DNA of 64,000 nt from a virus. Under the pieces are notes generated by a model. It did no database searches. It was not told the DNA's origin and worked only from the letters and a program-made list of their open reading frames with translations. Made by a program: the position numbers and the translations under genes. The stretch's first letter is position 1, and each line of letters opens with the position of its first letter. Shown here one piece after another: positions 3,751 through 36,367 of this stretch. The stretch is from the IMG/VR virus record IMGVR_UViG_3300034101_006340, positions 32,001 through 96,000 of that record; one strand, 5' to 3'.

Positions 3751-4521
3751 CTATCTAAGATCGTTTGGATTATTTTCTGCCACTAGTCGGCCAACCTCTG
3801 GAACAAATTTAATATTATCAGATCCAATATGATTGCTAAGACATAAAAAAGATATTTTTTCAGCATCACCAAAAATTCCTTGGTCAAAAATTTGCGATAC
3901 TCTTAAATAAGAATTTGCATATTTATTCATTATTTTAGAACCACCAAAAGCAAATCTTATTAAATCTCCCATCTCGCCCTTTTCCCAATAATGAGATGTA
4001 TATATTTTACTACAATCTGTAAACTGATGTAAATTCAGTAAATTATTTAGATTATATTGCATATCCGGGCGTAGTCTAAAAACAAAATCATACAGTAAAT
4101 TTGATGAGTACTCAACTTCCTTTTTTAAGATATTACAATAATAAATTAATCCAAATTGTTTAAAACAGTGCAAAACATCATTTTGTATAGCCCTGTCATC
4201 AAAGTTATACTCTTGATCGGTCATGTCTGTATAATTAAAAGGACTATATGTTGAAGAAAAAAAATCGTCTTTAAGTATTCTTACGTGATTTGTTTCGTAG
4301 TCTTTTTTTATTTGATTCGAAGATACTATCATATCAGATGACCCTGTCGCATTAAGATTATGTGCTGCTGACCAAGATTTGTTTGTGTTTAATTTATCCC
4401 ATGTGCATACAAATGTGTCGATGATACCAAATTGACTATAGTGTTGTTTAAACATATAATAATTATCTAATAATTTTTGATAATTTCTCATGTGACCAGA
4501 GATACAAAAAGCAATTCTCAT
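3751..4521 (-). CDS. Putative glycosyltransferase-like protein
   Basis: N-terminal RIAFCISGHMR and internal YDFVFRLRPD motifs, a pattern I associate with phage/bacterial glycan-locus proteins; sugar-cluster context. Confidence 0.5.
   Translation of the reverse strand: MRIAFCISGHMRNYQKLLDNYYMFKQHYSQFGIIDTFVCTWDKLNTNKSWSAAHNLNATGSSDMIVSSNQIKKDYETNHVRILKDDFFSSTYSPFNYTDMTDQEYNFDDRAIQNDVLHCFKQFGLIYYCNILKKEVEYSSNLLYDFVFRLRPDMQYNLNNLLNLHQFTDCSKIYTSHYWEKGEMGDLIRFAFGGSKIMNKYANSYLRVSQIFDQGIFGDAEKISFLCLSNHIGSDNIKFVPEVGRLVAENNPNDLR
4432..4460 (+). promoter_or_regulatory. Possible antisense sigma70-type promoter inside the 3751..4521 gene
   Basis: TTGACT (4432-4437), 17 nt, TATAAT (4455-4460); could be a chance match in AT-rich DNA. 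Confidence 0.3.
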
Positions 4522-4964
4522 AATAAATAATCTCTATAAGACTGAATATAATCGCTACATATACCAGCACAACTATAATATAATTTATTTTTAGACCATG
4601 GCTGTTGATCTAGGCATATCGAATACTCTTGTAGCTCATGCATAGGATATGTCCATATATAATTATTACTAGTTAATGTGTAATAATCATTTTGATGCCA
4701 AAAGCAAGCCATGTCTAATTTAAGCAATAGAGTTAATGCTGTAATATTTTTTGCATGACACCATAATCTATTTTTATTATCGATTAAAAAACTTTCATTT
4801 ATCCGATAATCACAAGAGTCATGTCCCAAGTACCATTGATTATTCTCAACTGTTAAATCTATTTCAACATCAAAATCTTTGTTTATAGCTTCTAAAATAT
4901 AAGAGGGAGAATTTTCGTATTTATTAACACCATCAGTATTGCCTCTATGCGAAATAAAAAACAT
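4518..4964 (-). CDS. PLC-like/GDPD-like phosphodiesterase (truncated TIM barrel)
   Basis: ISHRGN...ENSP...DVEIDL motifs of the glycerophosphodiester phosphodiesterase family. Confidence 0.7.
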   Translation of the reverse strand: MFFISHRGNTDGVNKYENSPSYILEAINKDFDVEIDLTVENNQWYLGHDSCDYRINESFLIDNKNRLWCHAKNITALTLLLKLDMACFWHQNDYYTLTSNNYIWTYPMHELQEYSICLDQQPWSKNKLYYSCAGICSDYIQSYRDYLL

Positions 4965-4971: not shown

Positions 4972-5292
4972 TTATATGATATATTTATCTGATGGTACAG
5001 ACGGCCATTTAATCACAATAAGATCGACATCCTCTAAAACAGTAACATCAGCTATGTCATAAGGTTCATACAAGAACATGTCGCCCCTAGACAATATGCG
5101 ACCAGATACTAATAGTTTACCAGAAATAATATACGTCAATTCTTGAGATATTTTATGCGTATGTGGTTGAGCCTCATGACCGGCTTTATGAGAATGGTGA
5201 GCAACTTCAAAAGAACTATTTCTAAAAACGGAAGGATAGAAATCTCCTATAAACCATCCATTTTTCATTTCACTAATGTTATATGTTTTCAT
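4972..5292 (-). CDS. Cupin (RmlC-like) protein
   Basis: GWFIGDF, HSHKAGHEAQPHTHKISQELTYIISG cupin motif 1, GDMFLYEP motif 2. Confidence 0.7.
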   Translation of the reverse strand: MKTYNISEMKNGWFIGDFYPSVFRNSSFEVAHHSHKAGHEAQPHTHKISQELTYIISGKLLVSGRILSRGDMFLYEPYDIADVTVLEDVDLIVIKWPSVPSDKYII

Positions 5293-6458
5293 ATATCTGA
5301 TAACTCTTGAACTCGCACTTGATGTCTTCCTCCATCAAAAGTATTATTTATTAAAATTTTAATAACGCTTTCTGCTTTACTAGTATCAGCAAAAATTTTA
5401 CTTGGGAAAGAAAAATAATTTGCACAACTATGCCTGATAGACATTTCAGCAGAATATTCGTCATAAATTAATGCTCCTCGAATACCATTAAATTTATTAC
5501 CACATATATTTACGCCCTGTCCGGTTCTACAAAAAGCGAAAATAAAATCACAAACTCCGTCTTGCTTAGAAACAATAGCTTGATTTATATAATATTTATA
5601 ATCACAATCGTTGTGAGTGTGTGTGCCAAAGTCTATATATTCTATACCCAATTTAGATAATATATCCGCAAATATTTGTTTTGTTTCATACCCAGAATGA
5701 TCAGCACATAATGCTATTGGTTTTACGCCTATGTGTTTAACAACATTATTTTTATAAAACATAAATTCTTTTGGCGTCCCAAAAATATGTATTTTATCTA
5801 CTAGTCTATCTATTATATTTTTATTATCTTTTATCAATAGATTATATAAAGGAGTGATATAAAACTCTCCATTAGTAGTAATATTATTTTTAATCATTGT
5901 ATCGGCATATTCACAAAACATAGATCCTTTAGCAAAATAATAAATACCTACACACGCCCTGTCACTAATAACTTTTTTTTCTGCCGTTAAAGTAATATAC
6001 TTATTATTATCATCTAATTTTACATAACTATAATTTGGAGAATTAGATTTAAAAGTTAATAGCGTACCATCAATACCATCGTCCGCCAAAGAAGATGGAT
6101 CTAAGACCGGGAAAAACTCTATATCTAATGTATGAATAATTAGAGGCATATCATTATTGATTACTTCTTTTGCCAATAAACAACTACACACTGAGCCTTT
6201 TGTTAAGCCATCAGTAATAAAAATTTTAATATCATCTCCAAATTTATTGCGTAAAATTGTGTCAGCATTATAGTTATAAACCTGATCATCTCTAACAATA
6301 AAAATTAAATTACACTCTGAATAGTCAATACAACTTAATGATATATCGATAAGTTGTTTATTTTCTACATAAATAAATTGTTTTGGCACCTCGTATCCCG
6401 CTTCCTTAAAACGACTACCTAATCCCGCCATAGGAACAATAAGATTATATTTTTTCAT
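5289..6458 (-). CDS. Fusion of a sugar-phosphate nucleotidyltransferase (NTP_transferase) and a C-terminal RpiB-like isomerase
   Basis: N-terminal IVPMAGLGSRF..GY..PK, AEKK, ACVGIYYF, EFYITP; C-terminal ADHSG, FCRTGQGV, RH-x-x-AN, FDGGRHQVRV. Confidence 0.85.
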   Translation of the reverse strand: MKKYNLIVPMAGLGSRFKEAGYEVPKQFIYVENKQLIDISLSCIDYSECNLIFIVRDDQVYNYNADTILRNKFGDDIKIFITDGLTKGSVCSCLLAKEVINNDMPLIIHTLDIEFFPVLDPSSLADDGIDGTLLTFKSNSPNYSYVKLDDNNKYITLTAEKKVISDRACVGIYYFAKGSMFCEYADTMIKNNITTNGEFYITPLYNLLIKDNKNIIDRLVDKIHIFGTPKEFMFYKNNVVKHIGVKPIALCADHSGYETKQIFADILSKLGIEYIDFGTHTHNDCDYKYYINQAIVSKQDGVCDFIFAFCRTGQGVNICGNKFNGIRGALIYDEYSAEMSIRHSCANYFSFPSKIFADTSKAESVIKILINNTFDGGRHQVRVQELSDI

Positions 6459-7173
6459 GGTTATTTCTATTTATTAATTTATTTTTTGTTTTTAATATTG
6501 CATTAACTAAATTATCTTTGATATACATATATCCCCATTGATCTATAATAAAACCAGCCAAAATATCTCCTGCTCCATTAACATTCAATCCTTCTATAGG
6601 AATATTTTCTACGCAGCAAACACTATTTCCGTCAACAACAATTTCTACTCCAAAAGGATCATGAAATATAATAGGAGTTTTTGTTCTAATAGAACAGTAC
6701 ATATTCTTTCTTTCTCTGGAATCAAAAATAATTTTAGCTTGATTTATTAATTGTATAAATTTAGTCCTGTCAGCCGAACTAGTACAAAAGTCTAAGCTAA
6801 AATTGGACACAATGTTTTGTACGGATAAATAATCTTCAAAATCATCAATATATGCAAAATGAACCCAGCTGGCTGTATTTAAATATTCGATATCTTTTTT
6901 ACTAATGATCGAAGCTTCTGTGTTTTTAACAAAAGACATTCTTGTACTATTAGCAATATCGCAAATAATATACGCTTTTTTTAACCCTATCCTATGACAA
7001 TGAAGAGTATAATTTAAAAAATTAACCTCATTAAAGTTGTTGTATCCTCCAATAATTTTTTGAAGATTAGTGTAGTAATTAGTTTCATTGAGTTGTATAT
7101 TCTGTGTTTCTATAATTGTGTCGAAATATTTTTTACCACAAACAATTAAGCTATGGTTTTTTCGTTGTATCAT
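6445..7173 (-). CDS. PfkB/ribokinase-family carbohydrate kinase
   Basis: C-terminal VNGAGDILAG anion-hole/catalytic Asp motif. Confidence 0.7.
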   Translation of the reverse strand: MIQRKNHSLIVCGKKYFDTIIETQNIQLNETNYYTNLQKIIGGYNNFNEVNFLNYTLHCHRIGLKKAYIICDIANSTRMSFVKNTEASIISKKDIEYLNTASWVHFAYIDDFEDYLSVQNIVSNFSLDFCTSSADRTKFIQLINQAKIIFDSRERKNMYCSIRTKTPIIFHDPFGVEIVVDGNSVCCVENIPIEGLNVNGAGDILAGFIIDQWGYMYIKDNLVNAILKTKNKLINRNNHEKI

Positions 7174-7174
7174 C

Positions 7175-7699
7175 TTAAAAAGTTTCTTGTTTATCTAGCT
7201 CTTCTATATCGGATAGACCAACATATTTTACCATTTGACGTTCAATAAGAACATTATAAAGATCACAAATAACATTATTTCCGCCTTTAGAAGATAATGT
7301 ATTTTTTATGCCACACAAACTTTTTATGTCTTCACAAGCATCTTGTGGACAAAAACAATATCCAACGCTTTTCATTATATTAATATCGAATAAGTCGTCT
7401 CCTACATAAACCATATCTTTTTTATGAATACGATACTTTTCTTCCAATATTGGCAACAATGATACCTTATCAATTCCTCTTGAACTAAAAAAGTCTATGT
7501 TTCTATTCTTGGCCATATTTTCATTAACTTTGATATCTCCAGAAATAAAACAAACAACTATATCAGAAGCTTTAAATCTTTTAATAGCTGTAAAATCTTT
7601 ATCACAGTATTTTTTAGCATATGGCATCCCATCGAGTCCATAAATTTTTGTACCATCCGTCATAACTCCATCGACATCTAGGGCTATTAATTTAATCAT
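7175..7699 (-). CDS. kdsC: KdsC/YrbI-family HAD phosphatase
   Basis: LDVDGVMTDG, DFTAIK, FISG, K, YVGDDLFD, SKGGNNVI pattern typical of KDO-8-P/NeuNAc-9-P phosphatases. Confidence 0.8.
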   Translation of the reverse strand: MIKLIALDVDGVMTDGTKIYGLDGMPYAKKYCDKDFTAIKRFKASDIVVCFISGDIKVNENMAKNRNIDFFSSRGIDKVSLLPILEEKYRIHKKDMVYVGDDLFDINIMKSVGYCFCPQDACEDIKSLCGIKNTLSSKGGNNVICDLYNVLIERQMVKYVGLSDIEELDKQETF

Positions 7700-8463
7700 A
7701 TTTTTAACAGATGCTCCTTTGGTTCATCATCAAATTGTTCGATAGACTCGTGAACCATATGAGGAGGTGGAACGCCCCCGGATTCTGTAAGCCAGTGTTG
7801 ACTCCAAAAATTTTTATTTCTGATTAATCTGGCTTCCAAGTCCACATATCCAGTATGAATAACATAGGGTGTTTTTCCTTGCCTTAACGCTTCAATCGAA
7901 TTGTCAAACATACGAGACTTAACTAAATTACCATTTTTATCAATTAGCTCACAAGTATCGCTTTTGGTTGTATCAACTGTTCCATTCGATTTTCTCGCAA
8001 AGTTTACTGGACCTCTGAAAAGACCGCTTTTATGTAAATACCATTTGTGTCCTATAGAATAATAATGATTAAAATCTTTGTAAAGATTTAATGAAGCAAT
8101 CATATAACACATATATGTATCACACAATAAATTATCTGCTAAATCTAACCATAATGATTTTTGATACAATGGAATATATTCATCCATATCTAATCCAATT
8201 TTAAGTAATTGAGTAGTATTTTGTAGGGCGCAGTTTTTTATTTTTCCATCCATCCAAGGGTCTTCGTAGGAAAAATCACAAGACACCACCTTTAGATTAT
8301 CGAGTTCATGCGAAAGTTTTTGGATTTCTATTAAAGTATCATCTGAGCTAGAATTTATAGCAATAACAACTTCATCGGCAAAATCAGAAAATTTTTGTAA
8401 AGTATTTTTGTAATCAAATTTGTTTTTGATAAGATTAAAAGCAGATGTATAGATAGAAATCAT
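7696..8463 (-). CDS. Glycosyltransferase family 2-like
   Basis: DEVVIAINSSSDDTL, KNCAL and LDMDEY (DxD-type) motifs. Confidence 0.75.
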   Translation of the reverse strand: MISIYTSAFNLIKNKFDYKNTLQKFSDFADEVVIAINSSSDDTLIEIQKLSHELDNLKVVSCDFSYEDPWMDGKIKNCALQNTTQLLKIGLDMDEYIPLYQKSLWLDLADNLLCDTYMCYMIASLNLYKDFNHYYSIGHKWYLHKSGLFRGPVNFARKSNGTVDTTKSDTCELIDKNGNLVKSRMFDNSIEALRQGKTPYVIHTGYVDLEARLIRNKNFWSQHWLTESGGVPPPHMVHESIEQFDDEPKEHLLKI

Positions 8464-9026
8464 ATTATGTCAATCCCCAAAAGATCAAATACAGCATTTG
8501 CTATTTGACTTGGTTCAATGGTTTGAATAAGGCCATAAGGATCATTGTAATGGAAAGTTGGCTTAGTGCTAGAGAAATCTGGTTCAAATATTCTAATATT
8601 ATTTTCATTAGAAAAGTATGGCCTAGACATGTTTGCGTAATATCCGTATAAAGCGACTATCTTTATATCATAATACGAAGCTAAATGCACGGGCAAACTA
8701 TCAAAACCAAGATGTAATTGAGCGTTTTTGATCAAAAAAGCTAAACTACCATAAGATGTTTTACCCAGATAATCATGATTAGCTCCCTGGCATTTAGGAT
8801 CTAATAACCCTCCAGTTTGAACGATTTCATAAGTAAAATTAGGATTATTTTTGAGAATACTAATAACATTTTCCCATTTGTTATATAATCTTGCTGTTCC
8901 TTTGGGGTCATAAGAATGAAGAGTTATGTATTTCGTAGAGGGCAAGACTATCGAGGAGTCTTCTTTTATAAACGGCTTAGCAATAGGACACCCGCAGGTC
9001 AGTGCATAAGTTTCTAATATGTGCAT
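8460..9026 (-). CDS. GT9 (ADP-heptose:LPS heptosyltransferase-like), C-terminal domain only
   Basis: LGKTSYGSLAFLIKNAQLHLGFDSLPVHLAS...IVALYG matches the GT9 C-domain consensus GKTSLxELAALI...DSGxxHLAAA...VALFG. Confidence 0.8.
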   Translation of the reverse strand: MHILETYALTCGCPIAKPFIKEDSSIVLPSTKYITLHSYDPKGTARLYNKWENVISILKNNPNFTYEIVQTGGLLDPKCQGANHDYLGKTSYGSLAFLIKNAQLHLGFDSLPVHLASYYDIKIVALYGYYANMSRPYFSNENNIRIFEPDFSSTKPTFHYNDPYGLIQTIEPSQIANAVFDLLGIDII

Positions 9027-9028
9027 AA

Positions 9029-9427
9029 TTATATTGTTTCTTTCATTTGAAGTCCTATTCTGGTTTGTCCATTATGAATATAATTTAGATATCTTTGAGT
9101 AAACACAGTAATCATGAAGCTAATGTCAAATAGTCCTTGCCATTTACCGTGTCCTTCCATAATGAGTTGGTTTTCCATAATTGGCATATAATTAATCACT
9201 TTAGCGATATTTGGATTATCTAACAACAATGAATGATATTGTTCCTTACAAGCAAAATATATATCATATTCCGGATATAGCTTTTTCATAGATGGTAATA
9301 AACTAGTAGATAAAAAAATATCTCCAGCACTTTCAGGAACTATCATTAGAATCTTTTTATTATCTGATTGAATTAGTTGTTGTGCTATAATAGCTAATTG
9401 AGAATCATAGTCTTGTTTTGTATCCAT
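9029..9427 (-). CDS. GT9 (heptosyltransferase-like), N-terminal domain only
   Basis: KKILMI...AGDIFLSTSLLPSMKKLYPEYDIYF...LLLDNPNIAKVI matches the GT9 N-domain; AAGGA SD-like sequence upstream. Confidence 0.8.
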   Translation of the reverse strand: MDTKQDYDSQLAIIAQQLIQSDNKKILMIVPESAGDIFLSTSLLPSMKKLYPEYDIYFACKEQYHSLLLDNPNIAKVINYMPIMENQLIMEGHGKWQGLFDISFMITVFTQRYLNYIHNGQTRIGLQMKETI

Positions 9428-9450
9428 ATAATTCCTTAATATACTGATTT

Positions 9451-9478
9451 ATCATAGATATTTGTCTGTACCGGTCAA
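9451..9478 (-). promoter_or_regulatory. Leftward sigma70-type promoter of the minus-strand sugar operon
   Basis: On the minus strand: TTGACC (9478-9473), 16 nt, TATGAT (9456-9451), then AAGGA and the ATG at 9427. Confidence 0.65.
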
Positions 9479-9489
9479 GAATCTTGACC
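9473..9489. repeat. Perfect 8-1-8 palindrome GGTCAAGA-A-TCTTGACC containing both -35 boxes
   Basis: Read directly from the sequence. Confidence 0.9.
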
Positions 9490-9511
9490 ATAGACATTGT
9501 TAACTTATAAT
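9484..9511 (+). promoter_or_regulatory. Rightward sigma70-type promoter of the plus-strand sugar operon
   Basis: TTGACC (9484-9489), 16 nt, TATAAT (9506-9511); ATG at 9536. Confidence 0.7.
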
Positions 9512-9535
9512 AGTTTGTTTCCACAGAGACTGAAA

Positions 9536-10402
9536 ATGATTATAGCCATAGCTTCGGATCATAATGGGATTGCTCTCAAACAATCCATTAAAACTTTTCT
9601 GATAAATAAATCTTATAAAGTTATTGATCTCGGACCATACTCGAATGAAACTGTTAATTATACAGATTATGCTGATCAACTTGCGCATATTGTTTCCAAC
9701 ACAGAAGTAGATAGAGGAATTTTGATATGTGGTACTGGCGTTGGTATGAGCATTGTAGCAAATAGACACAAAAATGTTAGAGCTGTTTTGGCACACAACA
9801 TGATAACGGCAACCAAGTCGAGAGAGCATAATAATGCCAATGTTTTATGTTTGGGGTCTTGGGTAAATAATGAGCCAGATAATCTGGACATTCTTGATGC
9901 TTGGCTATCGGAATCGTGGGGAGAAGGCAGACACGTTAAAAGAGTAGAAGTAATAGACCAAAAAGACACAGGCATTGTATTAACAAACGGTGTGTTCGAC
10001 ATCATGCATAAAGGTCATCTTGAGCTTTTAAAGTTTGCAAAAAAACAAGGCACCAAATTAGTTGTAGCGATTGATTCCGATGCTAGAGTTAAACTGCTCA
10101 AAGGTCCAAGCCGACCAATTAACAATGAAATAGATAGAAAAAGCTTACTGGAATCTAATATCTATGTTGATGAAGTGATTATTTTTAATACACAGGAAGA
10201 ACTGATTAATTTATATGCCTCAGTTAGGCCGTCTGTTGTGGTTAAAGGCTCGGAATGGACCGCTGATCAAGTACGAGAGCAAGATCATATACCAGATAAT
10301 ATTCAAATTAAATTATATCCATTATTTAAAGATTATTCTACAACCAGCACAATAAAAAACATAAAAGACATTCCAACATGGCAGAAAATAAAAAACTACT
10401 AA
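9536..10402 (+). CDS. rpiB: Fusion of RpiB (ribose-5-P isomerase B-like) and an HldE/RfaE domain II-type (HxGH) nucleotidyltransferase
   Basis: SDHNG, ICGTGVGM, EHNNAN, EGRHVKRV; then TNGVFDIMHKGH, DSDARVKLLKGPSRPIN, VKGSEW, STTSTI. Start moved from TTG 9497 to ATG 9536 because the TTG lies within the promoter. Confidence 0.9.
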   Translation: MIIAIASDHNGIALKQSIKTFLINKSYKVIDLGPYSNETVNYTDYADQLAHIVSNTEVDRGILICGTGVGMSIVANRHKNVRAVLAHNMITATKSREHNNANVLCLGSWVNNEPDNLDILDAWLSESWGEGRHVKRVEVIDQKDTGIVLTNGVFDIMHKGHLELLKFAKKQGTKLVVAIDSDARVKLLKGPSRPINNEIDRKSLLESNIYVDEVIIFNTQEELINLYASVRPSVVVKGSEWTADQVREQDHIPDNIQIKLYPLFKDYSTTSTIKNIKDIPTWQKIKNY

Positions 10403-11142
10403 TTATAGGCGACACTATTGTAGACCAATATATTTTTACTCAGGCTTTAGGGCTGAGTCTAGAATCACCATGCATAAAAACCAAATTTATAAATTCTCAA
10501 AGCATGTATGGTGGTGCTGCTAATGTTGCTAGGATAGCCTCCTATCTTGGAGCAGAAGTATCTTTTATTACTTCTGTTAGTAAAATTACCGAGTACCAGC
10601 TTTCTACTCAGTATCAAATTAAAGTTATTAATATAAAAGAACCCAAAGATAATATTAAAAGCAGATACTTTATACAAAAACAAAACACTATTTATCAGTA
10701 TCTACAAATTAATGATTGTATGGAAAATCAACAAGAAGCTAATCTTGTATTAGATCAAGATTATGACACTATTGCTTTTTCTGATTATAGACTCGGATTA
10801 ATAGATCAAAATATTTTAAACATAATCAAAGACAAAAATACCACTACCTATGCAGCATCACAGGTTTCTTCAAACAATCCCAATTTTGAATTATACAATT
10901 GGGTGAATCATATTGTTTGCAACGAAGAAGAATCTCAATACTTGCCTACCTTAGAAAATATTTTCGTTACTAAGGGACACAGAGGGTGTTCGTACAACGG
11001 CAAAGACTACCCTGCATACCCGGTTTCTTCTGTAAAACAGATTATTGGTGCTGGCGACTGCTTTTATGCTGCATTATTAGTATTTAATGATCCAGACAAG
11101 GCTAATGAGATAGCGGCTAAATATGTGGCCAAAGAATTATAA
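10378..11142 (+). CDS. PfkB-family kinase, HldE/RfaE domain I-like (heptose-7-P kinase-like)
   Basis: LLIIGDTIVDQY, GGAANVA, FSDYRLG, VTKGHRG, IIGAGDCFYAA. Confidence 0.85.
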   Translation: MAENKKLLIIGDTIVDQYIFTQALGLSLESPCIKTKFINSQSMYGGAANVARIASYLGAEVSFITSVSKITEYQLSTQYQIKVINIKEPKDNIKSRYFIQKQNTIYQYLQINDCMENQQEANLVLDQDYDTIAFSDYRLGLIDQNILNIIKDKNTTTYAASQVSSNNPNFELYNWVNHIVCNEEESQYLPTLENIFVTKGHRGCSYNGKDYPAYPVSSVKQIIGAGDCFYAALLVFNDPDKANEIAAKYVAKEL

Positions 11143-11822
11143 TGAATACATCAGAACTTTGCGTCAGGCTTAATAAGCAATTGTATGATCACAAAATAAC
11201 ATTGCATACCTGGGGTAATGTAAGTGTATACGACAGCAAGACTGGAAATATTTATATAAAGCCTTCCGGTGTTTCATTTGATGATCTAACTGTTGATCAA
11301 ATTTCTATTATAGATCATAATGGAAAACAACATAGTGGTTTAAAACCGTCCGTAGACACCCCCATACACAACGCAATATATAAAGCATTTCCACAAATTA
11401 GATCTATTCTTCATACGCACTCAAAATATACTACAATATGGTGTCAGTGTCGTAAGAATATTCCTATATTAGGTACCACACATGCAGATTATTTTCCTGG
11501 CCCGATCCCTGTTCTTGATCTTCCTAATAATTTTGATTTTGATGCTTACGAAACAAATTTAGGTAATCTAATTGTTAATTATTTTATAGAGCAAAAAGCA
11601 CAACCAGAACGCACTGGGGCTGTTCTTCTGGCCAATCATGGAGTTTTTGTATTTAGCGACAAACCTGAAACTATTATAGAAAAAACTATAACCCTAGAAT
11701 TTATTGCTGAACTAGCAATGTGTTGTGAGATCCTAGGTATTAATCATAAAGATAATACGAGTCTTTTTAATAAACATTTTGAAAGAAAACATGGAGTTAA
11801 TAAATATTATGGACAGTCCTAA
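11142..11822 (+). CDS. araD: L-ribulose-5-phosphate 4-epimerase (class II aldolase fold)
   Basis: WGNVS, IKPSGV, KPSVDTPIH, HTHS, GTTHADYF, LLANHGVF and C-terminal RKHGVNKYYGQ. Confidence 0.9.
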   Translation: MNTSELCVRLNKQLYDHKITLHTWGNVSVYDSKTGNIYIKPSGVSFDDLTVDQISIIDHNGKQHSGLKPSVDTPIHNAIYKAFPQIRSILHTHSKYTTIWCQCRKNIPILGTTHADYFPGPIPVLDLPNNFDFDAYETNLGNLIVNYFIEQKAQPERTGAVLLANHGVFVFSDKPETIIEKTITLEFIAELAMCCEILGINHKDNTSLFNKHFERKHGVNKYYGQS

Positions 11823-12219
11823 ATATGGCAAGCAAACTATTGACGAGCCATTTCGTCCTCCAGAGTCGCTCGAAAAATACTGGGGAAATATACAAAATAT
11901 TTTTAATAATGAATCACTAGTATTAAAAATCATAACTATGAATAAAAATACTCAAAGCAGTCTAGAGTACCATGTAACAAAAGATGAATACTATTATCTT
12001 ATTAAAGGCACACTAAAAGTAGGCATGAGGATTGGTAGAGCTAAAAATATTTCTAGAACATTAAATCAAGGAGAAATATTTTATATACCAAGAGGCTTGA
12101 TGCACATGAGGATTGCTTTGGAGGATTGTGTCATTCTAGAGTGGTCTAATGTTGACAACGACGAAGATTCGAATATAGTAGAAGATGGACGCACATACAC
12201 ACACCAGGAGTCTATATGA
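11809..12219 (+). CDS. Cupin protein (sugar isomerase-like)
   Basis: KYWG, SSLEYHVTKDEYYYLIKG, IPRGLMH, ILEWS; start placed at the second in-frame ATG to reduce overlap with araD. Confidence 0.75.
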   Translation: MDSPKYGKQTIDEPFRPPESLEKYWGNIQNIFNNESLVLKIITMNKNTQSSLEYHVTKDEYYYLIKGTLKVGMRIGRAKNISRTLNQGEIFYIPRGLMHMRIALEDCVILEWSNVDNDEDSNIVEDGRTYTHQESI

Positions 12220-12896
12220 GACAGCTTTTTTTAGATACCGCTAATCTGGAAACAATCAGGACATATCACGCTAAGGGTATAATAAATGGAGTGACAACTA
12301 ATCCGTCTCTAATATCCAAAGAACCCAAACAGAATTTCGATCAACTGATAGAACAGATATGGATTTATTGTGCATCCAATAGTTTATCGTTTAGCGTAGA
12401 AGTATTTGCTGTTGAACCAAAAGCTATTGTAGAACAAGTATTTTCTTTAACTAGTAAACTACTTAGTGTTTTTCACAACAGAAATCTTCTGTACATCAAA
12501 ATACCTGTCGGACTAGAAGAACTAGACTGTATTAGATACTTATCTGAAATTGGTATTAATGTTAATTGCACATGTGGATACACTACAACACAGATGGAGT
12601 TAGCAGCATTGGCTGGAGCAAAATATGTTTCTGTATTTTATAATAGAGCTAAAGATCTAGGTATTGATTCTTTAGAATCTATAAGGCAGATCAGAGCTTT
12701 TATAGACACAAATAATTTAGATACACAAATTATTGCTGGTAGTATACGTAATCCTTCTGATATTTCCGATACTTGGAATGCTGGTGCAGACATTGTTACG
12801 TGTGGACCAAAAATTATAGACTCAGCTATTTTCCATGAAGGTACCAAAAAGTCTGTTGAAGGATTTATGAAAGATTTTAATGATTGGATACAATGA
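12216..12896 (+). CDS. tal: Transaldolase (TalC/FSA family)
   Basis: FLDTAN, GVTTNPSL, SVEV, IKIP (Schiff-base Lys), NVNCT, IIAGSIR, GADIVT. Confidence 0.9.
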   Translation: MRQLFLDTANLETIRTYHAKGIINGVTTNPSLISKEPKQNFDQLIEQIWIYCASNSLSFSVEVFAVEPKAIVEQVFSLTSKLLSVFHNRNLLYIKIPVGLEELDCIRYLSEIGINVNCTCGYTTTQMELAALAGAKYVSVFYNRAKDLGIDSLESIRQIRAFIDTNNLDTQIIAGSIRNPSDISDTWNAGADIVTCGPKIIDSAIFHEGTKKSVEGFMKDFNDWIQ

Positions 12897-13636
12897 TTTA
12901 TTCTCAAATTAGAAAAAATTTAGTACATCGTTTAATAGATATATCTTATAAGAATAAAGAAGGCCATATAGGTAGCTCATTATCTATTTTAGACTTATTA
13001 TATGGGATTTATCATAGCTACAATTTATTTGATCAGTTTGTTTTATCAAAGGGTCATGCCTCATTAGGGCTGTATGTTATACTAGAACATTTTGATTTGC
13101 TTCATGATTCTTTAGATAATTTTTGTAAGTTTGATTCTCGTCTAGGGGGACATCCATACTGTTATTCAGATTCTAGTATTCAGTGCGCTACTGGATCTTT
13201 GGGACACGGATTTCCTTTTGCTTTAGGACTATCAATGGCAAAAAAAATACAGAAAGACATCGGCAGAGTCTATTGTATAATAGGAGACGGAGAAGCTAAT
13301 GAAGGGACCATATGGGAAACAGCTTTATTGGCTTCTCATATGAAAATAAACAATCTATATTGCATAATGGATTATAACCATTCTGGAGACAGAGCACTGG
13401 GTCTTGGTAATATAATTGAAAAATTTGAGGCTTTTGGCTGGGATTCGACAGAGATTGATGGACACAACATGTCTGAAATTTTAAATGCACTAAAGTATCG
13501 ATCCTCCAAACCATTTTTTATTCTTGCTCATACCATCAAAGGATATGGGATACCGAGTATACATAATAATCCTGAATGGCATCATAAGTCTCCTAATGAA
13601 TCTGAATACCAATTTCTAGTATCTCAATTACAATAA
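12893..13636 (+). CDS. Transketolase, N-terminal (TPP-binding) subunit
   Basis: GHIGSSLS, LSKGHA, LGGHP, TGSLGHG, GDGEANEG..W, DGH, HTIKGYG, WHH; the ATG at 12893 forms an ATGA overlap with the tal stop. Confidence 0.9.
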   Translation: MIYSQIRKNLVHRLIDISYKNKEGHIGSSLSILDLLYGIYHSYNLFDQFVLSKGHASLGLYVILEHFDLLHDSLDNFCKFDSRLGGHPYCYSDSSIQCATGSLGHGFPFALGLSMAKKIQKDIGRVYCIIGDGEANEGTIWETALLASHMKINNLYCIMDYNHSGDRALGLGNIIEKFEAFGWDSTEIDGHNMSEILNALKYRSSKPFFILAHTIKGYGIPSIHNNPEWHHKSPNESEYQFLVSQLQ

Positions 13637-13654
13637 ATAAGCGAAGAAAAATAA

Positions 13655-14338
13655 ATGAAACACGATAAACCAATATGTGGTAGTAATATTGCTAAAGTTA
13701 ATAGATATATTAGTAATGCTAATATAGTATTCGAAATAGGGGCTTATGATGGCGTCGATATCGAAGAAATTAACCAGCTTTGGAATAACCCCATCATTCA
13801 TTGTTTTGAACCAGATCCAGAACCATTTGAGATATTGAATACATATGCTTCAGAAAAAATAATATGTAATAATATTGGACTTTTCGATAAAGAAGATAAA
13901 ACCATACTATATAAAGTACTTAATAAAAATCTTGGCGAAGCAGAACAAAAAAATAGAAGTCTGTGGTATAAAACTGCTCAATCTTTATATCCAATAAATA
14001 CAAACTATTATGGATATCCAAGAGATATTGGCCTACAGGAAGTAGAAATTAATGTATCTACTATAGATAACTACTGTAAAAAATACAACATTATGCCAAA
14101 TATTATTCTGATGGATACACAAGGTAGTGAATATGATATTTTAATCGGAGCACAAAACACATTAAAAAACAATAATTTAAAAGGTATTATGCTGGAATGG
14201 TCTACAGACACACTGTATACTGGTCAAAAAAAATTAAATGATATCACAACACTACTTGAAACAACCGGTTTTGTATTGGCAGAAAAAATTAATTTATGGA
14301 ATGCAATTCATGGTGATGCTATCTTTATAAGAAAATAA
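13655..14338 (+). CDS. FkbM-family SAM-dependent methyltransferase
   Basis: FEIGAYDG, HCFEP, TIDNY, LMDTQGSEYDILIG, IMLEWS, GDAIF. Confidence 0.85.
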   Translation: MKHDKPICGSNIAKVNRYISNANIVFEIGAYDGVDIEEINQLWNNPIIHCFEPDPEPFEILNTYASEKIICNNIGLFDKEDKTILYKVLNKNLGEAEQKNRSLWYKTAQSLYPINTNYYGYPRDIGLQEVEINVSTIDNYCKKYNIMPNIILMDTQGSEYDILIGAQNTLKNNNLKGIMLEWSTDTLYTGQKKLNDITTLLETTGFVLAEKINLWNAIHGDAIFIRK

Positions 14339-15217
14339 ATGCGTAAACAATTTGCTAAAACACTCCAGAATATTCTATATAAAGACTCCAATTCCGTATT
14401 GTTATTAGGAGATATAGGCGTATTTGCTTTTAGAAAAGAAATAGAAGAATTATCAGACAGAGTATATAATATAGGAATTTTAGAACAATCCACTGTTAGT
14501 TTAGCCGCTGGGCTATCTAAAAATGGTATAATTCCTTTTGTTCATACAATAGCTCCCTTTATGGTAGAAAGAGCTTTTGAACAAATCAAAATAGATTTTG
14601 GCTATCAGAATTTAAATGGCAATTTCATTAGCGTCGGCTCTTCTTACGATTATGCTGGGCTTGGTTGTACTCATCATTGTCCTGGCGATGTGTCTTTGAT
14701 GCTAACTGTGGAAAATATGCACATATTTTTACCTGGCAATAGTAAAGAATTAGACGATTTAGTTAATCAATCGTATGTTTTAAAGCATCCAAAATATTAT
14801 AGATTAAGTGAATATGAGCACAGCTTATCTCTAGAATTAGAGTATGGTAAAGCCAAGCTTATTAAGCGAGGTCAAAAAGCAACCATAATATGTTATGGTC
14901 CGATGCTTCAACAGGTATATGAAGCAACAGAAGATTTGGATGTGACAGTTCTTTATTACAATACCGTATACCCGTTCGACTGCAAAACTTTGCTGGACAA
15001 CTTGAGTCAAAACATTATTATATGTGAGCCATTCTATATTGGTACAACTAATTATCTTATTACAAACGCTATAAAAAACACATATTATAAAATACATAAT
15101 ATTGGTGTGCCAAGAAAATTTTTGAAAAATTATGGCAATAAACAAGACCATGATCAATTTTTAAGTTTGGACACAACCGGTATAAAAAATCAAATAGAAT
15201 CATGCTTGATATCATAA
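14339..15217 (+). CDS. Transketolase, C-terminal subunit
   Basis: MRKQF, NIGILEQ, AAGL, THH, YYRL and CEPF motifs of the pyrimidine-binding and C domains. Confidence 0.9.
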   Translation: MRKQFAKTLQNILYKDSNSVLLLGDIGVFAFRKEIEELSDRVYNIGILEQSTVSLAAGLSKNGIIPFVHTIAPFMVERAFEQIKIDFGYQNLNGNFISVGSSYDYAGLGCTHHCPGDVSLMLTVENMHIFLPGNSKELDDLVNQSYVLKHPKYYRLSEYEHSLSLELEYGKAKLIKRGQKATIICYGPMLQQVYEATEDLDVTVLYYNTVYPFDCKTLLDNLSQNIIICEPFYIGTTNYLITNAIKNTYYKIHNIGVPRKFLKNYGNKQDHDQFLSLDTTGIKNQIESCLIS

Positions 15218-16227
15218 CTGATGATTGCCAGAATATAGCCGATAAAATTAATAGCACCAAATTAGCTAACAAAAAAATCTTAATAACGGGTGCCACAGGA
15301 TTGATAGGTCTACATTTGGCTAAATCAATAATATCTATTAAACAAAATAATAAACTTGTTTGTCTATTTAATTCAGAGATAGATCCTAAAATAAGACCCC
15401 TATTCGATGACAACAATTTGTCTTGTGTTGCCTATGATCTTACTGATTTGAATTGGAAGTATTTAAATGAATTTGTTGCTGAGTTTGATATTATCATTCA
15501 TGCTGCTGGATATGGTCAACCAAATAGATTTACTGCTAATAAAATAAAAACAATATCACTAAATACAGAAATTACACATAGATTATTTAACCATTTAAAG
15601 CCGGGGGGAACTTTTTTATTTTGCAGTACTAGCGAAATATATAGTGGTTTAGAAAAAAATAATATTTCTGAGGATGATATTGGTGCAACTCAGCCAGATC
15701 ATCCAAGATCATGTTATATAGAAGGCAAAAGATGTGGGGAAGCCATATGCCACGCTATTAAAGATCAATATCCCGATAAGCAATATAATATTAAAATAGC
15801 GAGAATTAGCTTAGCATATGGTCCCGGAACTAGAATCAATGATGCTAGAGTATTAAATAATCTTATTCAAAAGGCTATACAAAACAATAAGATAGAATTA
15901 TTAGATAATGGTAGTGCTATTAGAACTTATGGTTATATTACAGATATTACTGAAATGCTATTGAATATTATGTTGCACGGTCAACACTCAACATATAATA
16001 TAGCTGGTCAATCTCGATTATCTATACTAGAATTAGCCTCAAAAGTAGCATCTCTGACCGATAGTCCTTTAATAGTGCCTGAAAGCACTAATGGTTTGGC
16101 GGGTAATCCTAAAAATGTTAACTTATGTTTAGATAGATATGCTAAAGAATTTCATAAATCAGACTTTATAGACATAGATACTGGATTACAAAAAACAATT
16201 CAATGGCAAAGGTTTTTATATGCATAG
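15202..16227 (+). CDS. NAD-dependent epimerase/dehydratase (UDP-glucuronate decarboxylase-like SDR)
   Basis: ITGATGLIG, HAAG, STSEIY, CYIEGKR, YGPG, RTYGYITD. Confidence 0.85.
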   Translation: MLDIITDDCQNIADKINSTKLANKKILITGATGLIGLHLAKSIISIKQNNKLVCLFNSEIDPKIRPLFDDNNLSCVAYDLTDLNWKYLNEFVAEFDIIIHAAGYGQPNRFTANKIKTISLNTEITHRLFNHLKPGGTFLFCSTSEIYSGLEKNNISEDDIGATQPDHPRSCYIEGKRCGEAICHAIKDQYPDKQYNIKIARISLAYGPGTRINDARVLNNLIQKAIQNNKIELLDNGSAIRTYGYITDITEMLLNIMLHGQHSTYNIAGQSRLSILELASKVASLTDSPLIVPESTNGLAGNPKNVNLCLDRYAKEFHKSDFIDIDTGLQKTIQWQRFLYA

Positions 16228-17146
16228 AATATTAAGTCAAGATATTGAAAAAATATTATCATTACCAGTACCAAAACATATTGCAAATAAATTAGATTCT
16301 ATAGATGAATCTTTAATATATACAGACTTATCACCAGTAGACTATGAACAATATCTTATACATGTTATAAATGTACTAACAACACCCATAACTCAAAGTG
16401 GACCACATAGACTACAAGACTGGGAAAAGGGCTGGAAAGAAAACTTAGTAGAATTTGCTAAAACTCAAAATACTAATTTATTAATACCTAAATATCATGG
16501 TAAACACCGATATGTAAGATGGCAAGGTAGAATAGTTAATCCTGTAACGAAATATTTTGACTATAAAATTCATACATATATTATAGATACTATAATCGAT
16601 CACTATGTAAAAAATATTAATAATATTTATGAATTTGGCTGTGGCCCAGCGTACCACCTACTAAGATTATCTTCTTACTATAACGATAAACAATTCTTTG
16701 GATTAGATTGGACAAGTACATCGCAAGAAATTATTCAGTTGATTAATGAAATAAATAATACGTCTATTATTGGTAATAGATTTGATTTTTTTAGTCCAGA
16801 CTATAATGTAATTATACATCCAAATAGTTTAGTATATACCATAGCGGCGCTCGAACAAGTTGGTAAAAATTTTGTTAATTTTATTGATTATTTACTAAAA
16901 AACAAACCACAAATTTGTATACATCTTGAGCCCATGTCTGAAACATTAAATAAAGATAGTTTGGTTGATTTATTATCTATTAAATATTTTGAAAAACGTA
17001 ATTATTTATCTGGATTCCTAGAATATCTATCGGCTCTTGAAAAACAAAAAAGAATAGAAATCATAGATGTTCGTAGAACATATGCTGGCAGCTATTTTAT
17101 AGAAGGACACTCGCTGGTTGTTTGGAGACCATTAACTAATGATTAG
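16220..17146 (+). CDS. Class I SAM-dependent methyltransferase
   Basis: YEFGCGP glycine motif, GLDW, FDFF, ALEQ. Confidence 0.75.
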   Translation: MHRILSQDIEKILSLPVPKHIANKLDSIDESLIYTDLSPVDYEQYLIHVINVLTTPITQSGPHRLQDWEKGWKENLVEFAKTQNTNLLIPKYHGKHRYVRWQGRIVNPVTKYFDYKIHTYIIDTIIDHYVKNINNIYEFGCGPAYHLLRLSSYYNDKQFFGLDWTSTSQEIIQLINEINNTSIIGNRFDFFSPDYNVIIHPNSLVYTIAALEQVGKNFVNFIDYLLKNKPQICIHLEPMSETLNKDSLVDLLSIKYFEKRNYLSGFLEYLSALEKQKRIEIIDVRRTYAGSYFIEGHSLVVWRPLTND

Positions 17147-17819
17147 TCTACTAATACCCACAAGAAAAAGATTTCATTTTATCAAAAAATCTCTTTCTAG
17201 TGTTGTGCGTCAAGCAGATGACATCAATCAATACGAGGTGTTGTTTGCTATCGATGATGATGATTTAGAAACGAGAGACTTAATAGAACAATATTGTATA
17301 GGACTAAAAATTAACTATAAAATTATTATCTTTAAAAGACTATACTATAAAAATTTTCATATATATGTCTACGAGCTTTTTCAACATGCTTCTGGTCAAT
17401 TATTATGGGCTGCCTATCCTGATGATATGGAAATACTAACACCTCATTGGGATACAATTTTAAATCAAAAATATATAGATAAGCTTTATTTGAAAACTAG
17501 ATTTAAATGCAATGAATATAAAAATAATTATGCTTGTGAATTTGATAGCTGGAAATACTCTGTTGCTCCCATTTTAAACAGAAGATGGTTGGATGCCACT
17601 AAAAGAATCGGATGTAATTCTCAAACTGATGTTTGGTTGGGCACAATAGCGAGCGAGCTTGATATTGTAACTATTGTTGATGAAATTACTTGCGATATTT
17701 TTAACCACGCAGACGGTTCTCAGCACAACACAAGAGATATAGAATTACCTGATATAAAAAAAGAATGGCTTCTAGACAAAACTAATATACAAGAACTTCT
17801 CAATAAGGATCTAAGATGA
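17139..17819 (+). CDS. Glycosyltransferase family 2-like
   Basis: ISLLIPTRKR, EVLFAIDDDD, YPDDM, DVWL. Confidence 0.7.
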   Translation: MISLLIPTRKRFHFIKKSLSSVVRQADDINQYEVLFAIDDDDLETRDLIEQYCIGLKINYKIIIFKRLYYKNFHIYVYELFQHASGQLLWAAYPDDMEILTPHWDTILNQKYIDKLYLKTRFKCNEYKNNYACEFDSWKYSVAPILNRRWLDATKRIGCNSQTDVWLGTIASELDIVTIVDEITCDIFNHADGSQHNTRDIELPDIKKEWLLDKTNIQELLNKDLR

Positions 17820-18724
17820 ATACTTTAGTGACTGGAGGAAAAGGATTAGTTGGCTCCTTTATACCCTTCGGATTAAAGCCAACAAAAGATATATTAAATT
17901 TATTAGACTATCAGGCTTTGGAAAGATATATAGAAAACAATAATATTTCAAGTATCATACATACAGCAGCCAAGGTTGGAGGTGTTCATAGTAATACAAA
18001 GTATGTGTTTGATTTTTTTGTAGACAATCTAAATATTAATACAAACATCCTCAAAGTCTGCCAAAAATATTCTATTAATAAGTCTTTATTTATGATCTCT
18101 ACCTGTGCATTTCCTAAAAATGCTCAACTACCACTACAAACAGAGTCATTGCACAATGGAGAGCCACATGAGACTAACTATGGCTATGCTTATGCAAAAA
18201 GAATGATAGAGGTTGGGATTAGATCATTAAAACAGCAATATAATCTAATGGCGAATTCTATTATTCCATGCAATCTTTATGGAGAGTATGATAATTACCA
18301 TTTAGAGAATGGCCATGTTATTCCTGGTTTAATTCATAAATGCTATCTAGCTAAAAAAAACAATACTACACTAGAAATTTGGGGGTCTGGCAATGCTGAG
18401 AGAGAGTTTATTTATGCAAAAGATATAGCTGATATAATTGATAGTATTCATAAGAATAATCTCTATATAGATGGGCCAATGATAGTATCTCCCGATTCTA
18501 TTATTACTATTAAAGAAATAGTTCATAATATAGTTAAAATTATGAAATTCAATGGTGAAGTATATTTTAATACTACAAAACCAGAGGGTATTCTCAAAAA
18601 AAATTCTTCTAACGCAAAGTTTAGAACACATTTTCCGGATTTTCAATTTACTGCTCTAGAAGAAGGTCTTGGTAAAACAATCGAATACTTTTTATCCAAT
18701 TACTCTTCTGTGCGACAACAATGA
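17816..18724 (+). CDS. fcl: GDP-L-fucose synthase-like epimerase/reductase
   Basis: VTGGKGLVG, AAKVGG, STCAFP, YAYAKR, NLYG, GHVIPGL, WGSG..REF.YA. Confidence 0.88.
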   Translation: MNTLVTGGKGLVGSFIPFGLKPTKDILNLLDYQALERYIENNNISSIIHTAAKVGGVHSNTKYVFDFFVDNLNINTNILKVCQKYSINKSLFMISTCAFPKNAQLPLQTESLHNGEPHETNYGYAYAKRMIEVGIRSLKQQYNLMANSIIPCNLYGEYDNYHLENGHVIPGLIHKCYLAKKNNTTLEIWGSGNAEREFIYAKDIADIIDSIHKNNLYIDGPMIVSPDSIITIKEIVHNIVKIMKFNGEVYFNTTKPEGILKKNSSNAKFRTHFPDFQFTALEEGLGKTIEYFLSNYSSVRQQ

Positions 18725-33435: not shown

Positions 33436-33612
33436 ATGAAATTTCACGAACTTAAAGTTGGTGATAAATTTGTACTAGACAATATAGAACATGAACGTAT
33501 CACCGACGAAAGAGTTAGTTGCTGCAAGGTTCTTAACGCTATTAATAAATCAACTAATGAAAAAATTATGGTAGTTCCTATAACAGAGGTTAATGTAGTA
33601 GAAAATTCATGA
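33436..33612 (+). CDS. 58-aa hypothetical protein (absent from the ORF track)
   Basis: Hand translation MKFHELKVGDKFVLDNIEHERITDERVSCCKVLNAINKSTNEKIMVVPITEVNVVENS; AGGAG SD; ATGA overlap with the next gene. Confidence 0.75.
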   Translation: MKFHELKVGDKFVLDNIEHERITDERVSCCKVLNAINKSTNEKIMVVPITEVNVVENS

Positions 33613-36359: not shown

Positions 36360-36367
36360 TAATGGTG

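Follow-up and report, generated by a model that had tools for sequence, protein, structure and literature searches.

Fusions of RpiB to two unrelated nucleotidyltransferases anchor predicted gene sets for activated sugars in an uncultured marine phage

We analysed 64,000 nucleotides of viral DNA (positions 32,001 to 96,000 of IMG/VR record IMGVR_UViG_3300034101_006340; hereafter, the window) and found that its source is an uncultured marine phage with two predicted gene sets for activated sugars, each built around a fusion of the isomerase RpiB to a nucleotidyltransferase. In module 1, an RpiB domain is followed by an HldC-like HxGH nucleotidyltransferase domain (CT), giving the protein RpiB-CT. 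In module 2, a GT-A-type sugar-phosphate nucleotidyltransferase (NT) precedes a divergent RpiB domain, giving NT-RpiB. The two modules are divergently transcribed and share a parts list; each therefore combines an isomerase of the RpiB family with a nucleotidyltransferase, a PfkB kinase, a HAD phosphatase and a cupin. These parts are conserved and collinear in related viruses, and SIS isomerases are absent from the viral genomes searched. We tentatively favour a reading, taken jointly with the step assignments given below, in which each module would make a nucleotide-activated sugar by a four-step logic that dispenses with a SIS isomerase. RpiB is probably not a simple stand-in for the SIS isomerase GmhA. 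The general logic of the modules is far more secure than the assignment of any individual step.

An earlier note on this DNA had described two opposite-order RpiB fusions, and profile searches bore this out: both open reading frames (ORFs) carry complete domains, and neither represents a spurious or disrupted gene. In RpiB-CT, whose ATG start lies within a TTG-start ORF (9497-10402), residues 3-143 match the full length of PF02502 (E 3.6e-48, 163.5 bits, cut-off 24.7), and the RpiB domain scores above the cut-off of the NCBIfam equivalog TIGR01120 (156.9 bits against 138.65). Residues 147-277 match CTP_transf_like (PF01467, 8.6e-16) and contain an H-K-G-H motif. The best NCBIfam match of this CT domain is rfaE_dom_II/HldC, at 121.5 bits below the cut-off of 181.5, and its top match in the PDB is 5x9q, a Burkholderia HldC structure. 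In NT-RpiB, residues 6-233 match the GT-A-type sugar nucleotidyltransferase 4evw (E 1.5e-15), with weak matches of the NT domain to PF00483 and PF01128, and residues 248-386 match the full LacAB_rpiB profile PF02502 (E 1.5e-30, 106.4 bits, cut-off 24.7) while staying below the rpiB equivalog TIGR01120 (94.6 bits against 138.65).

Both architectures are widespread. Each fusion has more than 1,000 homologues (protein clusters) of similar length in a collection of 5.8 billion proteins, and the top 120 share the same architecture in each case. Alignment-based scans of IMG/VR gave 52 full-length RpiB-CT loci and 80 of 120 stretches encoding NT-RpiB relatives, with at least 130 contigs retrieved across both cassettes; single-sequence scans of the genome and viral contigs returned CT-domain relatives only or none. 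In 401 genomes from the phylum of one Burkholderiales metagenome-assembled genome, the best 150 of 535 RpiB-CT matches include no full-length fusion and consist of stand-alone RpiBs or of alignments confined to the query's RpiB half. Two fusion variants (P0007 and P0008; 441-464 aa) have a tandem pair of HxGH nucleotidyltransferase domains after the RpiB domain.

The RpiB domain of RpiB-CT combines a conserved catalytic end with an altered phosphate end. Its catalytic loop is C-G-T-G-V-G, the canonical form attributed to it in the earlier note, and residues D8, H9, C65, T67, H98, N99, R132 and R136 are unchanged in 14 homologues. All 26 RpiB-CT fusion proteins and all 52 viral genes have Trp at position 109, whereas 111 of the 118 closest stand-alone RpiB relatives have Arg. 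At position 10, Asn occurs in place of the Gly or Ala of stand-alone RpiB. Arg113 of trypanosomatid and mycobacterial RpiB is one of four phosphate anchors, and the set His11, Arg113, Arg137 and Arg141 corresponds to His9, Arg109, Arg132 and Arg136 in window numbering (PMC4783025). RpiB-CT lacks the complete anchor set of RpiB proper since the Arg109 position is Trp. The substitutions R109W and G10N both fall in the phosphate-binding part of the active site, with the catalytic residues (Asp, His, Cys, Thr, His and Asn) all intact. Across the 52 viral genes, W109 is independent of a neighbouring AraD-like gene. An adaptation of W109 to L-ribulose-5-phosphate, which we considered, has no support from co-variation because the residue is present with and without that gene. 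True LacB sequences, sought for their residue at position 109, gave none above cut-off in the 31 genomes sampled.

NT-RpiB has diverged in a different manner. The C-R-T-G-Q-G loop that the earlier note had singled out, with its Arg at residue 311, is unchanged in 16 aligned homologues and defines the NT-RpiB family. Compared with stand-alone RpiB, the domain carries G66R, I69Q, M71V, S72N, E97R, N100C and G107P, and the equivalent of position 109 varies (R, K and others). Both fusions retain D-H, C-x-T and His, and RpiB-CT also retains N99. In the window's NT-RpiB, the residue after the ring-opening His is Ser (residue 344; H-S), compared with H-N in 25 of 26 sampled relatives. A maximum-likelihood tree places the RpiB-CT domains, which are 47-52% identical to housekeeping RpiBs, in a clade with support of 0.99, and the sister group of this clade includes Pelagibacteraceae RpiB (support 0.72). 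The stem of the NT-RpiB clade measures 1.08 substitutions per site against 0.27 for RpiB-CT. The fusions thus arose independently, as had been proposed, given their separate well-supported clades, unrelated partner folds and opposite domain orders.

Cultured phages carry relatives of NT-RpiB. The window protein shares 60.5% identity with both Synechococcus phage Bellamy gp206 and the counterpart of that protein in SynMITS9220M01. Related NT proteins from S-CAM9 (gp067, L151:4347-5732) and B23 (gp352, L152:4347-5720) have an N-terminal HAD_2 domain, beta-phosphoglucomutase-like, and no C-terminal RpiB. Because these relatives carry a beta-phosphoglucomutase-like HAD in RpiB's stead, fusion of this NT to the enzyme that prepares its sugar phosphate, whichever that may be, appears to be a recurrent event.

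No SIS isomerase was found in the window, consistent with the earlier note. A six-frame phmmer --max search with four SIS proteins gave a best E of 0.59 (3.9 bits), and as a control, two of the queries, both GmhA-like, match each other at 1e-42. For this phage, the negative covers the 64-kb window. SIS_2 was also not found in five viral genomes carrying RpiB-CT (93-100% complete), three further related ones (72-87% complete) and five complete cultured-phage genomes (Bellamy, S-CAM3, P-TIM68, P-SSM5 and S-SSM7). Cyanobacterial genomes, the positive control of this search, carry SIS_2 proteins. PF01380 (SIS) was likewise not found in the five cultured cyanophage genomes searched.

Module 1 is collinear in ~50 viral contigs, running RpiB-CT, PfkB, AraD-like, cupin, TalC and HAD. 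The PfkB gene directly follows RpiB-CT in 47 of 52 viral loci; in L045, L052/L053 and L055 the AraD-like gene is next instead, and L045/L048 have no PfkB match. As the earlier note had stated, the HldE-like kinase is a separate gene and does not sit on the transferase protein, with both matches below their cut-offs: the best NCBIfam match of the kinase, TIGR02198 (rfaE_dom_I), stands at 67 bits, far below the cut-off of 345. The AraD-like protein, encoded in 45 of 52 cassettes, scores 217.5 bits against the NCBIfam AraD model PRK08193 (cut-off 257) and matches E. coli AraD (1jdi) over its full length (E 6.7e-47). The 1jdi alignment shows that it retains the zinc ligands His95, His97 and His171, plus Asp76, Asp120 and Tyr229. 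Because all catalytic and metal-binding positions are retained, pentulose 5-phosphates are indicated as pathway intermediates.

A cupin is found in 50 and TalC in 49 of the 52 module 1 cassettes, and most cassettes missing TalC, the cupin or the AraD-like gene are truncated contigs. Every complete cassette of both modules has a cupin. The module 1 cupin marginally exceeds the cut-off of MannoseP_isomer (PF01050; 25.7 bits against 23.6) and contains W-G and H-x4-E motifs. Its AlphaFold2 model has a predicted local distance difference test score of 89.6, and both Foldseek and PDB profile searches returned generic cupins only (oxalate decarboxylase, KdgF, cysteine dioxygenase and lyxose isomerase). 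It is 35% identical to an S-CAM3 cupin annotated 'cysteine dioxygenase'. The small HAD scores 26.2 bits against HAD-SF-IIIA (cut-off 44.6) and 32.7 bits against the EcbF/BcbF subfamily (cut-off 162). In most viral loci it directly follows TalC. In the window it has been moved downstream by an insert comprising a split transketolase with an FkbM gene between its halves, two short-chain dehydrogenase/reductase (SDR) genes, a GT2 glycosyltransferase gene and one unknown gene. The transketolase halves were not found in the 52 related loci, and FkbM has one weak match elsewhere in L047 (26-27%). One locus (L027:10001-15158) has an extended cassette followed by a second, minimal set of CT, PfkB and cupin that lacks RpiB, AraD and TalC; this double set suggests that two different activated sugars are made side by side.

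Module 2 has the recurrent order HAD, PfkB-like, NT-RpiB, cupin and a 148-aa protein across 80 viral loci, and a transaldolase was not found in these cassettes. The KdsC-like HAD is present in 75, the cupin in 79 and the 148-aa protein in 69 of the 80. The kinase was assigned from a family alignment: of 58 unique viral versions of the gene at this position (~220 aa), 57 carry a G[AS]GD signature, 14 of 17 family members are matched by PF00294 (best 2.2e-8), and the family profile finds only ribokinase-family chains in the PDB. BLASTP between the window's 242-aa kinase and the module 1 PfkB was not significant. The cupin aligns with the module 1 cupin family (hhalign probability 91%, E 9e-7). 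The 148-aa protein falls in virus-only clusters of the ESM Atlas, with a weak glycerophosphodiesterase-like (GDPD) lead at only 0.85. Nearby lies a GT9-like ORF of 188 aa that matches Glyco_transf_9 (PF01075) at 28.9 bits (cut-off 22) over profile positions 159-228 only. It is preceded by a separate 132-aa ORF (together 8460-9427, minus strand), and the pair may form a two-piece GT-B enzyme; neither ORF is conserved in the related viral loci compared.

Core cassettes without RpiB occur in cultured cyanophages. S-CAM3, S-SSM7, P-SSM5 and P-TIM68 carry CT, PfkB, a small HAD, a cupin and an SDR, and neither RpiB nor SIS was found in their complete genomes. The 'phosphoheptose isomerase' annotated in such phages (T4-GC 306) is a ~110-aa HAD phosphatase with a DxDGT motif, 49% identical to the window HAD in the case of S-SSM7 gp130. 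We therefore rejected the S-CAM3 protein as a GmhA, given its HAD motif and lack of a SIS match, and the annotation looks like a propagated error. Because this protein is a HAD phosphatase, the isomerase is the step really missing in the cyanophage 'heptose' clusters.

Table 1. Features of the two modules and their surroundings in the window, with the cyanophage proteins annotated as phosphoheptose isomerase
Feature	Coordinates	Strand	Remarks
Virus-only conserved 148-aa protein	4518..4964	-	starts ..SHRG..; phrog_34507
Small cupin, 106 aa	4972..5292	-	HxH-x4-E-x6-G motif; phrog_24762
NT-RpiB fusion, 389 aa	5289..6458	-	GT-A-type sugar-phosphate nucleotidyltransferase + divergent RpiB (CRTGQG)
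Compact PfkB-like sugar kinase, 242 aa	6445..7173	-	G-A-G-D signature
KdsC-like HAD phosphatase, 174 aa	7175..7699	-	TIGR01670 81.6 bits (cut-off 106.95)
Unknown 255-aa protein	7696-8463	-	one weak match in related loci (L038, 22-23%)
GT9-like glycosyltransferase in two ORFs	8460-9026, 9029-9427	-	PF01075 on 8460-9026
RpiB-CT fusion, 288 aa	9536..10402	+	RpiB domain, residues 1-145; HldC-like HxGH nucleotidyltransferase, residues 147-277
PfkB-family sugar kinase, nearest HldE kinase domain	10378..11142	+	PF00294 8.5e-13
AraD-like L-ribulose-5-phosphate 4-epimerase, class II aldolase fold	11142..11822	+	PF00596 3.5e-41
Small metal-binding cupin, candidate ketose-aldose isomerase	11779..12219	+	PF00190; type II phosphomannose isomerase-like signature
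TalC/FSA-type transaldolase	12216..12896	+	PF00923 1.9e-37; TIGR00875 147.9 bits, below cut-off
Transketolase N half	12884-13636	+	part of window-specific insert 12884..15217
FkbM methyltransferase	13655-14338	+	between transketolase halves
Transketolase pyrimidine/C half	14339-15217	+	part of window-specific insert
SDR epimerase/dehydratase	15202-16227	+	tailoring/transfer genes 15202..18724
Unknown protein	16220-17146	+	within tailoring/transfer genes
GT2 glycosyltransferase	17139-17819	+	tailoring/transfer genes
SDR	17816-18724	+	tailoring/transfer genes
Small HAD-IIIA phosphatase, 113 aa	18721..19062	+	TIGR01689/TIGR01662 matches; last gene of conserved cassette
Small HAD annotated 'phosphoheptose isomerase'	L062:10083-10403 (S-CAM3 gp150); L150:7055-7390 (S-SSM7 gp130)		also so annotated in P-TIM68 and SynMITS9220M01

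We propose that these parts could act as follows. In the four-step logic, a sugar phosphate would be converted to an aldose phosphate, a kinase would phosphorylate O1, a phosphatase would strip the terminal phosphate and a nucleotidyltransferase would yield the nucleoside diphosphate (NDP)-sugar. For module 1, an upstream block of AraD-like enzyme, RpiB and TalC, joined here by the split transketolase, would build the sugar-phosphate backbone. RpiB would make an aldopentose 5-phosphate that TalC extends to a C8 ketose phosphate, in the manner of the lincomycin transaldolase LmbR; alternatively, the block would supply a C7 ketose phosphate. The cupin would then isomerise ketose to aldose, the step GmhA performs, and PfkB would 1-phosphorylate, HAD dephosphorylate and CT nucleotidylate the product. 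By analogy, the C8 scheme would be the most economical, using each enzyme once in a chemically precedented order. In module 2, a pentose phosphate would be converted to an aldose phosphate by the divergent RpiB, with or without the cupin, which would fill the slot of the arabinose-5-phosphate isomerase of the T-even UDP-D-arabinofuranose (Afh) pathway. This division of labour, with module 1 RpiB acting upstream on pentose phosphates, a cupin as the GmhA analogue and module 2 RpiB supplying the aldose phosphate, is a plausible but provisional assignment.

Several observations point this way. In the viral cassettes, the presence of RpiB tracks that of TalC and of a canonical AraD-like epimerase. 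Because the second set in L027 lacks all three, RpiB behaves like a member of an add-on block with TalC and AraD and not of the activation core. The RpiB of RpiB-CT looks like a pentose-phosphate enzyme, judging by its equivalog score, its kept catalytic residues, the Pelagibacteraceae sister of its clade and its AraD-like neighbour. From motifs and distribution, the cupin would seem a better candidate than RpiB for the GmhA-like step.

Other observations weigh against this proposal. It leaves R109W without explanation, and the R109W/G10N pattern fits what would be expected if the chemistry were retained while the distal part of the substrate changed, possibly to a longer one. HldE domains are the closest matches of both kinase and transferase, and there is a GT9-like gene in the vicinity; this combination favours a product of the heptose type. 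The cyanophage core cassettes could simply depend on host GmhA. The isomerase role of the cupin draws on a marginal PF01050 match and a motif, with generic cupins returned by Foldseek, and the step assignments as a whole were drawn from sequence.

In one alternative, the RpiB domains would functionally replace GmhA, acting on sedoheptulose-7-phosphate from TalC or on another C7-C8 ketose phosphate and feeding an HldA-like kinase. We consider this unlikely. A TalC in the cassette could supply sedoheptulose-7-phosphate, and neither the window nor its near-complete viral relatives yielded a SIS protein. Kinase and CT most resemble HldE domains I and II, the HAD belongs to the HAD-IIIA type, the window has a GT9-like transferase, and RpiB was joined twice independently to a pathway nucleotidyltransferase. 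The most informative point in its favour is the invariant R109W and G10N at the phosphate end with the catalytic end untouched. However, four cultured cyanophage genomes have the core cassette with neither RpiB nor SIS, the AraD-like enzyme and cupin would be left without a role, the RpiB domain of RpiB-CT lies above the RpiB equivalog threshold, and all HldE-like matches fall under curated cut-offs. Stereochemistry is a further difficulty. Characterised RpiB, AlsB and LacAB give 2R aldoses (ribose/ribo, allose/allo and galactose/galacto), whereas GmhA, KdsD and phosphomannose isomerase give 2S epimers (manno, arabino), manno-heptose in the case of GmhA; conversion of fructose-6-phosphate to mannose-6-phosphate is the exact stereochemical analogue of that of sedoheptulose-7-phosphate to the 7-phosphate of D-glycero-D-manno-heptose. 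Because the RpiB family gives 2R aldoses, its action on sedoheptulose-7-phosphate would, by analogy, yield D-glycero-D-gluco-heptose-7-phosphate and not the manno product of GmhA. The earlier note's suggestion that RpiB replaces GmhA therefore stands in so far as these are SIS-free sugar-nucleotide modules; as a like-for-like swap it gives way to the RpiB-less core cassettes, the co-travel of RpiB with TalC and AraD, the cupin and the stereochemistry.

If RpiB instead catalysed the committed first isomerisation, with a pentulose 5-phosphate as substrate (D-ribulose-5-phosphate, or L-ribulose-5-phosphate from the AraD-like enzyme), the aldopentose would be activated directly to an NDP-pentose. 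The result would be a non-SIS analogue of the UDP-arabinofuranose route, with TalC and transketolase serving only as feed and the cupin acting later, for example as an epimerase. We know of no biology in which L-arabinose-5-phosphate is used or NDP-L-pentofuranoses are made by such a route, which tells against this option, as do the retention of TalC in 49 of 52 module 1 cassettes, hard to explain as mere supply, a cupin left unexplained and the independence of W109 from the AraD-like gene. On the other side, a canonical AraD-like enzyme adjoins, the RpiB family has precedent for C5/C6 substrates, module 2 is without any transaldolase, and the LacAB conversion of tagatose-6-phosphate to galactose-6-phosphate would stereochemically match that of L-ribulose-5-phosphate to L-arabinose-5-phosphate. 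The parts list also matches the Afh route (PMC13326640). On balance, we regard direct pentose activation as quite unlikely. Far less probable still is that the RpiB domains are ordinary auxiliary genes of the pentose-phosphate pathway that raise ribose-5-phosphate for nucleotides, the fusion having no pathway meaning. Marine viromes are enriched in rpiB and transaldolase, an enrichment read in this way by Enav et al. 2014 (PMC4022391), and housekeeping RpiB is a near relative of the viral RpiB domain. Against this stand two independent in-frame nucleotidyltransferase fusions, each conserved in more than 1,000 protein clusters, a strict operon order with kinase, phosphatase and cupin, active-site changes specific to each fusion clade (W109/N10 and CRTGQG) and no fused form among the best 150 of 535 matches in 401 cellular genomes of one phylum.

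A bolder possibility is that marine phages twice recruited RpiB, by nucleotidyltransferase fusion, into SIS-free pathways for activated sugars new to biochemistry. Such a product might be an NDP-octose or a sugar of the L series, made from D-xylulose-5-phosphate via the AraD-like enzyme, W109 RpiB, TalC, cupin, PfkB, HAD and CT. We find this unlikely; if true, the 'rpiB' signal of ocean viromes that has been counted as nucleotide supply would be glycan biosynthesis.

The fusion context bears on how viral metabolic genes are read. Enav et al. 2014 reported enrichment of rpiB and transaldolase in marine viromes and read rpiB as raising nucleotide precursors; the scaffolds were cyanophage-like although cyanobacteria are without rpiB, and neither the fusion nor the cassette was mentioned (PMC4022391). 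Papers on pelagimyophages and cyanophages note rfaE or 'heptose' genes in passing only (PMC7029224, PMC7378029), and our literature search found no paper on RpiB-nucleotidyltransferase fusions or these cassettes. The viral RpiB genes we recovered are overwhelmingly fused to a nucleotidyltransferase and lie in operons with kinase, phosphatase and cupin genes, next to glycosyltransferases. Viral rpiB and talC have so far been read as redirecting host carbon to nucleotides (PMC4022391), and this context alters the role presumed for rpiB, an abundant gene of marine viruses. The cassettes open new nucleotide sugars, and the question of what marine phages glycosylate, to direct testing, with Synechococcus phage Bellamy and SynMITS9220M01 as cultured carriers of module 2.

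The remainder of the window (~31% G+C, AT-rich) has phage-like gene content, including genes for a class II ribonucleotide reductase, PhoH, an HNH endonuclease, a RecA/UvsX-like protein, a DnaB-like helicase, a Toprim primase, a dNMP kinase and a PD-(D/E)XK nuclease. Its replication genes are DnaE-type. The DnaE-type polymerase occupies two ORFs (PHP and NTPase, 31553-33433; finger/HhH/OB, 34298-35923), and a gene for an RNase T-like exonuclease (33609-34301) sits between them. Among the replication genes and outside the sugar island, a 583-aa protein (36362-38113) contains a GT1-type glycosyltransferase segment. The minus strand at 45817-59142 encodes two giant proteins side by side (2688 and 1750 aa) and, after them, three of ~500 aa with no Pfam match. 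These are presumably virion or fibre proteins and possible glycosylation targets. The window has no close relative among cultured phages: a megablast comparison of 25 kb of its sequence gave no match. An early guess that the window belongs to a T4-like cyanophage or pelagimyophage was dropped because its helicase is only ~26% identical to the nearest cultured-phage proteins.

Comparison with known systems places the modules within a familiar kind of pathway. Among the closest known systems are the cyanophage T4-GC 304-308 'heptose' genes (S-SSM7, P-SSM2/5 and S-CAM1/3), which have homologous CT, PfkB, small HAD, cupin and SDR; unlike in the window, their CT is stand-alone, and RpiB, an AraD-like gene and an in-cassette TalC are not part of the cluster. 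Measured against stand-alone RpiB/AlsB and LacAB (PF02502), both RpiB domains retain the fold, the Cys-x-Thr loop, the Asp-His pair, the Arg-x3-Arg phosphate site and the His-Asn pair, save for H-S in the window's NT-RpiB. They differ in being fused to nucleotidyltransferases, in the R109W and G10N of RpiB-CT and in the seven changes and long branch of NT-RpiB.

The ADP-heptose pathway shares the four-step logic; the best match of the PfkB kinase is the HldE kinase domain, the HxGH transferase is nearest HldC/HldE domain II (5x9q), the phosphatase is HAD-IIIA-like, and SDR epimerases and a GT9-like gene lie nearby in the window. In contrast to that pathway, the SIS isomerase GmhA was not found in the window; RpiB, an AraD-like enzyme, TalC and a cupin are added; the transferase is joined to RpiB and not to the kinase; and all HldE-, HldC- and GmhB-type matches in the window lie below curated cut-offs. 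The module 1 product is probably not manno-heptose. The Afh route of the arabinosyl-5-hydroxycytosine phages RB69, DLP3 and HY126 leads to UDP-D-arabinofuranose through an arabinose-5-phosphate isomerase, the NT-kinase fusion AfhE and the GmhB-like HAD AfhF (PMC13326640). It resembles the modules in having a phage-encoded isomerase, an anomeric kinase, a HAD, a GT-A-type NT, a start in the pentose-phosphate pathway and one NT-containing fusion. The Afh isomerase belongs to the SIS family, however, and its NT is fused to an APH/choline-kinase-like kinase, whereas in the window an RpiB-family isomerase is fused to NT, a compact PfkB encoded by its own gene serves as kinase, and there is an additional cupin. 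A 5-hydroxycytosine synthase was not found in the scanned parts of the window.

The lincomycin octose route proceeds from the transaldolase LmbR through the isomerase LmbN, the kinase LmbP, the phosphatase LmbK and the nucleotidyltransferase LmbO. According to the account of Sasaki et al. 2012 given in PMC5854111, LmbR converts ribose-5-phosphate to octulose-8-phosphate. The same succession of transaldolase, isomerase, kinase, phosphatase and nucleotidyltransferase would use RpiB, TalC, cupin, PfkB, HAD and CT linearly. The isomerase, kinase and nucleotidyltransferase come from other families, and an eight-carbon product in the window would follow by analogy only. Overall, the cassettes are a widespread variation on a pathway type that is already known.

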